DNA of 44,404 nt, from IMG/VR virus record IMGVR_UViG_2874951433_000009. One strand, given 5' to 3'. The stretch is from a virus (lineage: Duplodnaviria > Heunggongvirae > Uroviricota > Caudoviricetes). The position numbers were made by a program, and so were the translations under genes. Every line of letters starts with the position of its first letter. The first letter of the stretch is position 1. Below the pieces are notes generated by a model that did not search any database, was not told the origin of the DNA, and saw only the letters and a list, made by a program, of their open reading frames with translations. Shown here in pieces: positions 37,960-40,271 of the stretch.

Positions 37960-38294
37960 GCGTGACTTGGGGCGATTACTGCAAGGCCAATGGTCTACCC
38001 GCTCAGAAACTGATGACCATCCTTAAGAAAGAGCGCAAGCTGTTCCGAGTACATCCTTTCAGTGGCGAGTGGTCAGTCAATCCAAACTATGTGGAGTACT
38101 TTCGAATTATCAAACCTACTGACCATCGATTCAACCCAAACGGTATAAACATTCGGTTTAACGCTAAGGGGCTGGAGTTCTTCAGCCGACCTGAAAACGT
38201 ACTCAAGATGCACAGAAAGGTCATAGCGGTTCATGGAAGCGACGCTGCTAAACAGCAACACATACAGGCAGTAGCAAAGCTGGAGGGGAGGTAA
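37960..38294 (+). CDS. Uncharacterised protein, probably 5'-truncated by IS911 (at least 111 codons remain)
   Basis: Reading frame is open from inside IS911 across the junction; no convincing RBS for the first internal Met (38013); stop 4 bp before the next gene. Confidence 0.4.
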
Positions 38295-38297
38295 TTC

Positions 38298-38492
38298 ATG
38301 ACTAATAACACAATCAAGATTGACCCAAGGACACCAGAAGGCCGTAAGGCGTTACGCCTGATGGTGGTACCCACCAAGGCACTGATAGCTACTCTGGGTC
38401 TGCCTGCCAAGGAAAACCGCCCGTATTACTCTAAAGCTGCCCTCTGTCTCATGGCGGTTGACGCAGGGCTGACCCCAAGAGATTTCATGTAA
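38298..38492 (+). CDS. Uncharacterised small protein, 64 aa
   Basis: ORF tightly coupled to the upstream gene (4-bp spacing). Confidence 0.45.
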   Translation: MTNNTIKIDPRTPEGRKALRLMVVPTKALIATLGLPAKENRPYYSKAALCLMAVDAGLTPRDFM

Positions 38493-38619
38493 TTAACCCA
38501 CTAGCACAGCTAGCACCACCTTTTGAACTGACCAAGATACGGGGAGACGCCGTAGGAATACCTATGGAAGACCGATGAGTTTAATCCTTTTAAAACATCT
38601 TTTCAAAGGAGAAACAAAC

Positions 38620-39030
38620 ATGTCTATTTCTTATCGCAAACTGGATATCGCACTGAGCGCTGACAAAGAAACTGTACTGGTATTCGGTCAGGAGCTATCC
38701 ACTAAGTATTTCACCGAAATTGTCGTTACAACCATGCTGAACAGTACAGGCTCTGACATGGCGAACTCAAATCGTATTCTTAACGATATTCACGCCGCTG
38801 GTCTTGATGCAGGTGATTACGGCAAGTATTCCCGCTGGTGGGCTCAAAGCAACGCACAGGAGCGCCAAGAGGCTGAACGCCGACGTAAAGAAGCTAAGGC
38901 ACATCAAGAACGTATGGCTGCTATTCATGCTACACCAGAAGAGATTGCTAAGGCGGTCGCTGAACGTAAAGCCCGAGAGGAAGCATTGATTAAACGCTTC
39001 GGCAATAAAGGGGCCGCTTTCGGGCTGTAA
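38620..39030 (+). CDS. Uncharacterised protein, 136 aa, with charged helical C-terminal tail
   Basis: AGGAG RBS 7 nt upstream of the ATG at 38620; C-terminus ...ERQEAERRRKEAKAHQERMAAIHATPEEIAKAVAERKAREEALIKRFG. Confidence 0.55.
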   Translation: MSISYRKLDIALSADKETVLVFGQELSTKYFTEIVVTTMLNSTGSDMANSNRILNDIHAAGLDAGDYGKYSRWWAQSNAQERQEAERRRKEAKAHQERMAAIHATPEEIAKAVAERKAREEALIKRFGNKGAAFGL

Positions 39031-39131
39031 CTGATAACTTTCGGTGGCGCTGCTTGGATTCTGAGATAAGACCAATGGTGTCACCAGTTACTTTTTACGT
39101 AGTGCATTCATACAATAAGGAGATATTCATC

Positions 39132-40271
39132 GTGTCTATTACAAATCAAATTAACAAAGCATCCTCACTGGCTTCTCTGCGTCAGCCTCAGCGAGATAAA
39201 GACGGTCAAATCATTAAGGGGTCTATATGGGGCACTGACATCTCACGCACTGACTATGTTCAGATGACCAATGGTCAAGACGCCCAAGTTCTCAACGTAG
39301 GCTTTACGGACCGCTCAGGCCGTCCGATGGCCTTCGGGAATGATTCACATGATTTTGTTCAGGCGCTGGAGGACTCTTTGGATGAGACCTTCAATGATGG
39401 AGACTTCCGCACTGCTGTAATGGAGAATGTCTTCCCTTGTGAGTTTCGCCCATACGGCACTGACCCTACGCCTATTCGCCGTCAGGCTCTCCAGAATCGC
39501 ACCGTCCGCTTTAAGCATAATGGCGCGTTTAATCCAGCTAAGGATGCTCCGTCTACCACAGCCATCAAAGGGGCAAGCGTAACTGTCACCCCAGTGTTGA
39601 ACCCTGAGACCAATAAGACGGGCATCCTGTGTTCTGCTACTACTCATGTATCTGACTTCGATATGATGGGCGGTTGGACCGAGGGGGCATTAATCCAGAC
39701 TGTAGGTGATATGCAGGTTCAATACTGCCGCCAGATGTTCGCCGCTGTGGTCGATGTCCTGAAAGATACGCCAGACCTTCAAATCATTGAGGCAGCCCCA
39801 CTAAGTGGTAAACCGTCTGATCAAGCTGAAGATCTTCTGGATACATTAGCGTTGAATCTTCCGGTCGAGTTGGGAAATACACTGAGCGATTACGCTGTAT
39901 TGGTCCCTGAGAGACTTGAGGCAATCTTGGACCGAGCCGCTCAACGCGCAGGTCATGAGGATATTAGTGAGCTATTGGGCTGCACTGTATGCAGCTATGC
40001 GGGCGATGATACAGGTATCTATCTCCTGCCTAAGCGGTTCGCTTCTATCTCTTTCAGGTCAACTAAAGACGCTAAGACGGTAGATGTCAAAGTGACCCGA
40101 AATAGTAACACTGCTGGGTATGACCTTGAGTTAATCAGTGTGGTCGATGTGTTGGCTACTGGTTCCGTTAAGGTGAAAGCAGGTGAGTTTGACGTTGAGA
40201 AAGACGCCTCTTTCCCGTTGATACATGTTATTCGGTTTACTACCCCCAGAGTAACTATAAACCCTGAGTGA
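39132..40271 (+). CDS. Uncharacterised protein, about 379 aa, soluble
   Basis: AAGGAG RBS 8 nt upstream of the GTG at 39132 (the annotated ATG at 39054 has no RBS); no motif I can assign by eye. Confidence 0.55.
   Translation: MSITNQINKASSLASLRQPQRDKDGQIIKGSIWGTDISRTDYVQMTNGQDAQVLNVGFTDRSGRPMAFGNDSHDFVQALEDSLDETFNDGDFRTAVMENVFPCEFRPYGTDPTPIRRQALQNRTVRFKHNGAFNPAKDAPSTTAIKGASVTVTPVLNPETNKTGILCSATTHVSDFDMMGGWTEGALIQTVGDMQVQYCRQMFAAVVDVLKDTPDLQIIEAAPLSGKPSDQAEDLLDTLALNLPVELGNTLSDYAVLVPERLEAILDRAAQRAGHEDISELLGCTVCSYAGDDTGIYLLPKRFASISFRSTKDAKTVDVKVTRNSNTAGYDLELISVVDVLATGSVKVKAGEFDVEKDASFPLIHVIRFTTPRVTINPE

Follow-up and report, generated by a model that had tools for sequence, protein, structure and literature searches.

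Phage satellites and the element described here

For T7, the best-studied virulent phage, and its group we know of no natural satellite. The subject of this report is a block of four genes at positions 37960-40271 of the IMG/VR virus record IMGVR_UViG_2874951433_000009 (Caudoviricetes; the whole stretch of 44,404 nucleotides is called the window throughout). On comparison with chromosomal relatives, the block is the right-hand 2.8 kb of a site-specific integrative element of 6.1-6.5 kb, and intact relatives carry promoters of T7-like phages, an origin-like repeat module and a gene for a capsid-like protein. The family has the appearance of a phage satellite or phage-inducible island not described before, whose members are probably triggered by phage RNA polymerase and act as satellites of virulent T7-like phages or interfere with them.

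The nearest satellites bearing a capsid gene are SaPIbov5, with its HK97-fold, size-redirecting capsid homologue Ccm, and the capsid-forming phage-inducible chromosomal islands (cf-PICIs). The latter, of which EcCI2 is an example, have portal, protease, terminase and head-tail connector genes, all of which are absent from the element; compared with phage-inducible chromosomal islands (PICIs) in general, it has no Stl/AlpA-type regulators or primase-replicase and is half the size or less. Its control by T7-group promoters implies a presumed helper that is a virulent podophage, whereas PICIs and cf-PICIs depend on a temperate siphophage. A survey of about 12 loci of the family found none of the hallmarks of PICIs (Stl/AlpA, primase-replicase, terS or capsid redirection), of the cf-PICI head module or of P4 (alpha primase, sid, psu, delta). 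Integrated satellites of a virulent phage are known from Vibrio, in the form of the PICI-like elements (PLEs), whose helper is ICP1, and the phage-inducible chromosomal minimalist islands (PICMIs) of Vibrionaceae measure about 6 kb. The element is likewise integrated, would likewise become active only upon infection by a lytic phage, and is similar to PICMIs in its minimal size. The gene content of PLEs and PICMIs is unrelated to that of the element; neither is known to employ a captured phage-polymerase promoter or a T7-type origin, and PICMIs are not known to have a capsid gene.

In the literature searched, only the RAZR gene and the crystal structure of SF216 are already on record. The full-text search, whose coverage leaves out most subscription journals, returned no description of satellites of T7-group phages, of chromosomal elements with T7-type promoters or of DUF6971. 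RAZR (PD-T7-4) has been described as an abortive-infection RNase that the portal proteins of T7 and T3 activate (PMC13017515), and it had earlier been recorded as often overlapping an integrase gene (PMC9519451). The RAZR locus belongs to the same island family as the element, with RAZR overlapping the 3' end of the same large integrase at glyU. The searchable text of the two papers deals with RAZR as a single gene, and the phage promoters further down, the origin-like repeats, DUF6971 and the capsid-like gene are not mentioned in it (PMC9519451; PMC13017515).

The four-gene block in the window

A first-pass annotation of the window had described four co-directional genes between an insertion sequence and a lysis cassette. 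These were found as described on the plus strand, with good ribosome-binding sites on the last two:

37960-38294, plus strand: 3' fragment (about 111 C-terminal codons) of a 5'-truncated Rha-family/KilAC-like gene, from the list of open reading frames (ORFs) and alignment to intact genes
38298-38492, plus strand: gene for a protein of 64 amino acids (aa), starting 3 nt past the Rha stop
38620-39030, plus strand: DUF6971/SF216 gene, 136 aa, ribosome-binding site GGAG
39132-40271, plus strand: capsid-like gene, 379 aa, GTG start, ribosome-binding site AAGGAG
36711-37959, minus strand: IS911 with orfA/orfB, from the HTH_Tnp_1 and rve domains in the transposase ORFs

By their conservation, the four frames are real genes and not chance ORFs. 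All of them are kept at 93-96% DNA identity in two Escherichia coli chromosomes, the only ones with the block among 5,426 complete E. coli genomes, and homologues of the 136-aa protein and of the 379-aa protein make up about 50 clusters each across Enterobacterales. The inverted repeat of IS911 (TGAAGTGGTC...) begins at 36711, and at 37924-37959 (36 nt) the sequence matches the IS911 end annotated in Shigella phage Sf6 at 100% identity. Since IS911 ends at 37959 and the match to intact copies of the Rha gene begins exactly at 37960, the suspected truncation of the first gene by IS911 is real and the unit is incomplete. To its right the insertion sequence truncates the element, and to its left a large-terminase gene of P22 type. 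At its other end the unit runs past 40271, as conserved non-coding element DNA up to 40712 followed by an att repeat at 40713-40734.

The block lies upstream of the holin gene, at the place where the closest phage, PhiR47_1, carries Q and a tRNA cluster. Its likeness to a lambdoid nin region or Q antiterminator gene ends with this position relative to the holin, since the block has no homology to those families and is parted from the phage DNA by an att junction within a tRNA gene. Profile searches of the four proteins against Pfam, PHROG and NCBIfam gave no match to nin, Q, replication or methyltransferase families, as had been anticipated, and on this ground an identity as NinB, NinG, Roi, Q, a replication protein or a methyltransferase was ruled out. 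The reading of the block as foreign held good. Among 50,697 phage records the 2.4-kb block had no DNA match beyond the IS911 end and the 379-aa protein had no tblastn match.

A family of elements at tRNA-Gly genes

Both E. coli genomes with the block carry it beside the chromosomal tRNA-Gly(CCC) gene glyU and not in a prophage. The order there is tRNA-Gly, a tyrosine integrase of 544 aa, a gap of 1.3 kb without annotated gene, Rha, a protein of 64-71 aa, DUF6971 and a protein of 373 aa. E. coli LR-64-1 and 21AR0133 are natural hosts of an intact copy. Intact relatives occur at chromosomal tRNA-Gly(CCC) genes in E. coli, Klebsiella and Pectobacterium and at another site in Yersinia; individual loci are denoted below by L and a number. 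Every neighbourhood examined followed a common plan. An integrase of 463-564 aa comes first, and in some members a DUF4145 gene overlaps the 3' end of the integrase gene. A gap in which few or no genes are called leads to a DNA-binding protein, after which come, in some members, a protein of about 64 aa, and then DUF6971 and a protein of about 375 aa. This gene order is kept in E. coli, Klebsiella, Pectobacterium, Yersinia and metagenomes, including relatives that were found only by profile search. The homologues of the 379-aa protein fall into about 50 clusters, and Enterobacterales account for all of them (E. coli, Pectobacterium, Yersinia, Serratia, Klebsiella, Erwinia and Lonsdalea).

Relatives flanked by a tRNA gene have an intact tRNA-Gly at one end and a direct repeat of 17-23 nt of the tRNA 3' end at the other. 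The arrangement with the integrase next to the intact tRNA (attL) and the repeat of the tRNA 3' end as attR was found in L001, L002, L004, L009, L011, L013 and L031, and the lengths of the elements are as follows:

L001: 6.1 kb; 8476-14641 of the locus, 909492-915657 of NZ_AP027588
L004: 6.3 kb
L009: 6.5 kb
L011: 6.4 kb
L013: 6.4 kb

The Yersinia enterocolitica member (L007; HF933424, 11503-16534) lies between pntB and pntA, with no tRNA gene in the locus. The E. coli-type copy in L005 lies downstream of a partial ORF (1-455), which by eye we take to be a YeeU/CbeA-like antitoxin gene, and its left att repeat (TTCTAATCCCTTCGCCCGCTCCA) has no adjoining tRNA; this suggests tandem accretion of islands at one attachment site. 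Distant relatives of the capsid-like protein with 33-35% identity were also seen in four IMG/VR viral genome records (L021-L024) by a tRNA-Cys gene at predicted prophage edges. Judged by their dense overlapping ORFs these may be high-GC genomes, and the family may reach beyond Enterobacterales.

The attachment site in the window

Two features at the right end of the block connect it with these chromosomal copies:

40600-40712, strand not assigned: conserved right arm, attP-derived, from comparison with relatives
40713-40734, plus strand: attR, the 3'-terminal 22 nt (T-arm and acceptor end) of a lambdoid tRNA-Gly(UCC) gene, from identity to PhiR47_1

Homology to the E. coli copies of the element continues past the last ORF to 40735. 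The right arm contains two arm-type TGTAACC repeats (40636-40642 and 40648-40654), which the intact E. coli copy also has at its left end, and a family-wide end motif, GGTTAGC..GATTATCTTCGATACC; in its family form, GGTTAGC..GATT.TCTTCGAT.C, the motif precedes the direct repeat of the far end. The attR sequence TCGATTCCCGCTGCCCGCTCCA is the same, base for base, as the final 22 nt of the PhiR47_1 tRNA-Gly gene, which closes a Met-Lys-Thr-Gly cluster sited between Q and S. From 40713 onwards the window is 99.7% identical to PhiR47_1, through holin S, a YdfR-like gene, lysozyme R and Rz. The attR of the window stands in the same register as that of the chromosomal copies. No intact tRNA was found in the window by ARAGORN, and the integrase, the integrase-to-Rha gap and attL are absent from it. 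The simplest reading of these junctions would be that the element integrated into a prophage tRNA-Gly(UCC) gene and that its left half was later lost at IS911. The block had at first been taken for a late-region operon in a moron position of a lambdoid prophage; it is instead the distal half of an independent element that targets tRNA-Gly genes and used a prophage tRNA-Gly as its attB.

Phage RNA-polymerase promoters

In the relatives, phage-type promoters were found between the integrase gene and the operon, all of them on the plus strand. A T7-group promoter was defined by the 23-bp consensus from -17 to +6 (in T7, TAATACGACTCACTATAGGGAGA), in which the bases that confer specificity, -12 to -8, fit a phage of the same host. 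The E. coli copies have two perfect 23-nt T7 class III sites (TAATACGACTCACTATAGGGAGA) in the integrase-to-Rha gap, 119 bp apart and directed toward the operon. A BLAST search of this gap against phages returned T7-group promoter sites (phi9, phi10 and others) and, apart from these, one weak match. The sites with coordinates are:

L001 (E. coli NZ_AP027588), 10448-10470 and 10567-10589, plus strand: perfect T7 sites by consensus match
L031 (E. coli O103:H2 str. 12009), 8141-8163, plus strand: perfect T7 site; a class-II-like site is also present in this copy
L009 (Klebsiella), 6472-6599 and 7112-7134, plus strand: battery of four promoters, one K11-type, one perfect T7 and two AATTAGGTAGCACTATAGGGAGA

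The AATTAGGTAGCACTATAGGGAGA sites are 100% identical to sites of Klebsiella Przondovirus phages, which have 10-13 of them per genome, and the Klebsiella copy thus holds three phage-polymerase specificities side by side (K11-type, T7 and Przondovirus-type). Pectobacterium copies carry AATTAACTATCACTATTGGGAGACAGAT, which over 28 nt is 100% identical to annotated promoters, of Pektosvirus type, in the Pectobacterium phages PP81, PP47 and PPWS4; each of these genomes has 10 such promoters. Four T7-like promoter variants are present in the Yersinia copy, and L010, L011, L018 and L019 have repeated variants of their own, as variants are also found in L031. Judged by base identity, the promoters of the relatives match the local T7-like phages of each host. 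The window has no T7-type promoter, even when 3 mismatches are allowed. Host-type promoters were considered as drivers of the window block and rejected, as sigma-70-like promoters showed no excess over shuffled sequences there.

The origin-like module

The primary origin of T7 consists of the tandem promoters phi1.1A and phi1.1B and an AT-rich segment. Plasmids with a T7 origin, studied in the Richardson and Hinkle laboratories, reportedly replicate in T7-infected cells and are packaged if they have a concatemer junction. In the element, too, tandem phage promoters precede an AT-rich segment, which can be aligned to the T7 origin sequence in the same orientation. The element differs in being natural and chromosomal, in the tandem multiplication of its AT-rich unit and in a conserved structured block between this unit and the promoters; BLAST detected no homology to a concatemer junction or terminal repeat.

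The conserved block, of about 100 nt, lies downstream of the promoters and is kept from E. coli to Yersinia and Klebsiella, far better than the proteins are. It was located at:

L001 10620-10745
L005 2972-3100
L007 6497-6625
L009 6676-6805
L010 613-740

Its closing stem (ACTTATCG...CGATAAGT), which has one compensatory change, in Klebsiella, is suggestive of a conserved structure; the block gave no match in Rfam. The AT-rich tandem repeats come after it. These arrays align in the same orientation to T7 5924-6006, the AT-rich segment of the primary origin, over about 30-70 columns (the coordinates of phi1.1A and phi1.1B being those of the T7 record). The alignment scores exceed those of all 300 dinucleotide shuffles (z 4.7-7.6), and the reverse complement scores at background. 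The alignment supports, though it does not prove, replication by the replisome of a helper.

Several other repeats were noted in the intact gap of L001. Fourteen tandem TAGGGTCTCTCTC units occupy 11010-11198, four CCTGTGTGGT units 10354-10393, and six CTCAGTTTTGAGC units 11217-11355, the last array reaching into the Rha coding region. The TAGGGTCTCTCTC and CCTGTGTGGT arrays hold the T7 primase pentamers GGGTC and TGGTC. The E. coli gap contains 17 GGGTC sites, an enrichment seen in one lineage and missing in other members, and arrays of primase sites were accordingly dropped as a feature of the family. A short repeat of CACCACTAGCACC type (L001 11354-11403) recurs 5' of the DUF6971 gene in the window, at 38493-38530 (CCCACTAGCACAGCTAGCACCACC), and may be a candidate binding motif of a regulator. 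A resemblance of CCTAAAGAC and CCTATAGGGTC to the T7 ends was judged too weak and was not used.

The capsid-like protein and its neighbours

The largest protein had been described as soluble and without catalytic signature, whereas structure modelling and a fold search predict for it the HK97 fold of major capsid proteins, which is defined by N-arm/E-loop, spine helix, and P and A domains; the gene for the 379-aa protein is the hallmark of the family. The model scored 12.4 against the virus-like particle of Pyrococcus furiosus, 10.7 and 10.6 against encapsulins, 9.9 against T4 gp24, 9.7 against HK97, 8.8 against the head protein of the cf-PICI EcCI2 and 7.3 against the size-redirecting Ccm of SaPIbov5. 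In BFVD it matched 153 viral proteins at E<=1e-3, and the named ones among the 50 matches listed are all capsid or head proteins. Some distant relatives have C-terminal Big_2 or Ig-like domains, and C-terminal Ig-like domains are carried by many phage capsid proteins. The window copy departs from the E. coli copies at both ends, with an altered start region at 39100-39135 (GTG start and another leader) and, at 40250-40271, a 1-nt insertion in a run of C, by which the last residues read TTPRVTINPE in place of TAPE. The two changes may represent early decay.

The 136-aa protein had been left without an assignable family. It belongs to DUF6971 (Pfam PF22318; 1.4e-43, 147 bits against a cutoff of 27 bits) and is identical at 136/136 positions to PDB 5EUR, 'SF216 from Shigella flexneri 5a M90T', an entry with three chain copies. 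An AlphaFold2 model and the alignment indicate that the N-terminal domain is small, that the C-terminal helices are long and charged, and that the FG.KG..FG tail at the C-terminus is conserved; the N-terminal domain had no structural neighbour other than SF216 itself. The DUF6971 gene always lies directly 5' of the capsid-like gene, and because of this fixed place a role as scaffold or as internal cargo or partner of the capsid-like protein is suggested. A derivation of the capsid-like and DUF6971 proteins from gp10A and gp9 of T7 was considered and rejected, as hhalign finds no such relation.

The DNA-binding protein of the family has an N-terminal domain that is swapped among Rha, Bro-N and KilA-N, and a C-terminal domain common to the Rha- and KilA-N-type versions. 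Intact E. coli proteins have 234-244 aa. The fragment in the window has lost the N-terminal Rha domain; it matches the PHROG family of the anti-repressor Ant (3e-5) and Pfam KilAC (0.013, which is under the curated cutoff). The intact protein of L002 matches TIGR02681 phage_pRha at 1e-9, likewise under the curated cutoff of that model. The 64-aa protein is shared at 61-100% identity within an E. coli-type subgroup (L001, L005, L010) and at 31% with Yersinia L008, and had no match in Pfam, PHROG, NCBIfam or PADLOC. Several members have an intact gene for a membrane protein of about 90 aa with three transmembrane segments after the capsid-like gene, of which the window retains a relic:

40382-40444, plus strand: last ~20 codons of the three-transmembrane gene (MPAIAIALVLTGLHFAVGGG)

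The peptide MPAIAIALVLTGLHFAVGGG matches the C-terminus of ORFs of 90-115 aa in L005/L006, L010 and L013, and a more divergent ORF of 98 aa is found at the same position in L011.

Accessory genes were found in some relatives. The DUF4145 gene is PD-T7-4/RAZR by PADLOC (6e-99) and overlaps the 3' end of the integrase gene at:

L009 5831-6463
L005 2170-2811
L031 7507-8136

RAZR is missing from the window copy and from the two E. coli relatives closest to it. In the Yersinia member L007, the T7 internal virion protein gp16 has a homologue of full length with an SLT domain (phrog_342, E 2e-272; 44% identity to the T3/T7 group), and an HNH endonuclease gene is present as well.

Proposed mechanism and alternative explanations

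The favoured reading, which we consider probable, is that the family consists of satellites or interference elements of virulent T7-like phages that are triggered by phage RNA polymerase. Such an element would stay silent until a phage of the T7 group infects. The phage RNA polymerase would then fire the captured promoters, so that the whole rightward operon is transcribed, and the same transcription would prime replication by the phage replisome at the origin-like module. DUF6971 would act as a scaffold-like partner while the capsid-like protein builds or remodels capsids; the outcome would be packaging of the small element, sabotage of helper assembly, or both. Induction by the polymerase, replication by the T7 replisome, the building or remodelling of capsids and transfer from cell to cell are all inferred from sequence. 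A more specific version is put forward tentatively, at somewhat less than even confidence. According to it, the elements would be minimal satellites (about 6 kb) of Autographiviridae in Enterobacterales and beyond, with sensing and expression through captured, host-matched promoters, a mimic of the T7 primary origin served by the replisome of the helper, capsids built or re-sized by an HK97-fold protein of their own with an SF216-type scaffold and, in some, anti-T7 cargo such as RAZR, and they could lodge in tRNA genes of other prophages.

Several observations weigh against the satellite reading. Genes for portal, terminase and terS are missing from the element, as is any recognisable pac site, and when the non-coding regions of the E. 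coli and Klebsiella copies were searched by BLAST against phages for T7-type packaging signals, promoters alone were returned. The structure model of the 379-aa protein is only moderately confident (predicted local distance difference test, pLDDT, 67), and hhalign found no sequence similarity of this protein to T7 gp10A or of DUF6971 to T7 gp9. No circular or excised form was found among metagenomic contigs of about 6 kb, which have no terminal overlap and were rejected as circular forms, being integrated copies with flanks. The integrase gene lies upstream of the phage promoters, and the timing of excision is not accounted for by the mechanism. The window copy has no promoter, integrase or attL. 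In addition, the copy in O103:H2 str. 12009 (L031), the one island with integrase, RAZR, promoters and KilA-N that was studied closely, has lost the capsid module, which suggests that the defence cargo may be what is selected.

In another reading, the islands serve defence only. Here, the promoters would sense infection and toxic or interfering products (KilA-N/Rha-type, membrane or decoy capsid proteins) would abort the infection or poison T7 heads; the integrase would rarely move the island and nothing would be packaged. Islands with integrase, RAZR, promoters and KilA-N are present at glyU in 383 of the 5,426 complete E. coli genomes (about 7%), as would fit such a role, and so would the small three-transmembrane protein gene of several members and the lack of packaging genes and of homology to phage ends. 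RAZR/PD-T7-4, which many members carry, is a proven abortive-infection gene against T7 (PMC13017515). The anti-phage connection that the first-pass annotation had suspected is plausible in view of the RAZR gene in relatives; none of the four window proteins matched the PADLOC defence models. A sensor coupled to a toxin would have no need of a T7-origin-like module, of an HK97 capsid-like protein that in some relatives has Ig-like decorations or of a full gp16-like protein, and across genera the att sites are precise and the size stays tightly within 6.1-6.5 kb. A purely defensive island appears unlikely.

It is very improbable that the 379-aa protein forms an encapsulin-like nanocompartment, in which an HK97-fold shell would take up DUF6971 as cargo through a C-terminal peptide and be carried passively on the island. 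The upstream small protein does have its conserved C-terminal FG.KG..FG tail, and 5EUR does contain three chain copies. The protein gave no match to Pfam Linocin_M18, however, and a profile search of 1.84 billion representatives returned only 59 clusters; at every locus examined the gene sits in an integrase-bearing element, 3' of phage-polymerase promoters, and the Ig-like C-terminal domains and the gp16 neighbour are features of virions. Scarcely credible is an origin as moron or nin-Q replacement cargo of a lambdoid prophage, or as a piece of a decayed temperate T7-like prophage, for which the place upstream of the holin, the frequency of Rha-type genes in lambdoid phages and the gp16-like gene of one member could be cited. 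Two findings already contradict it, namely the att junction, which falls within a tRNA gene at the attachment register of the family, and the chromosomal relatives, which lie at tRNA-Gly with their own integrase and att repeats and without lambdoid genes. The block is unmatched in the phage collection, and the members, at a uniform size of about 6 kb, lack genes for RNA polymerase, DNA polymerase, portal and terminase.

Surroundings and fate of the window copy

To the right of attR, the window continues with phage DNA and a second insertion sequence:

40735-43163, plus strand: lambdoid late-region remnant ending at IS2, from Pfam/PHROG and comparison with PhiR47_1
41026-41241, plus strand: holin S, in the lambdoid remnant
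41246-41560, plus strand: DUF1327/YdfR-family gene between holin S and lysozyme R, ordinary for lambdoid phages of this group
41616-42149, plus strand: lysozyme R, in the lambdoid remnant
43164-44404, strand not given: IS2, which terminates the lysis-cassette remnant and is followed in S. flexneri chromosomes by remnants of type VI secretion system (T6SS) genes

The lambdoid remnant also holds Rz and an ORF of 172 aa. To the left of IS911, a P22-type morphogenesis module occupies 24039-36710 on the minus strand, with portal (721 aa), scaffold, coat, tail-4 and gp10-like genes, and the large-terminase gene of P22 type has its 5' end cut by the same IS911. Because this module points away from the lysis cassette, a rearrangement between prophage remnants, mediated by insertion sequences, is indicated.

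An identical arrangement was found in several S. flexneri chromosomes, including CP000266.1 and CM001474.1, in the order P22-type head genes and truncated terminase (minus strand), IS911, block, lysis genes, IS2 and T6SS genes. An inversion mediated by IS911, with the missing half of the element just outside the window, was ruled out by this order, since IS2 and then T6SS genes follow on the right and the missing half is therefore not adjacent. As the same arrangement recurs in several chromosomes, the block is a fixed fossil; with neither promoters nor integrase, the module can be neither triggered nor moved, and the window copy is a dead, non-functional remnant.

Significance

For the window itself the outcome is modest, namely a fixed and non-functional fossil of genome decay driven by insertion sequences. 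If the reading of the family as satellites or interference elements of T7-like phages is true, host-resident parasites would exploit the single-subunit phage RNA polymerase as a switch that is specific to infection. The genomic home of RAZR/PD-T7-4 would then be explained, and the orphan crystal structure of SF216 (DUF6971) would be given a biological context. The promoters would constitute natural, orthogonal parts for the sensing of phages, with several polymerase specificities adjoining in the Klebsiella copy. The reading also predicts ways in which T7-like therapeutic phages may meet with resistance or be hijacked in Klebsiella, Yersinia, Pectobacterium and E. coli.

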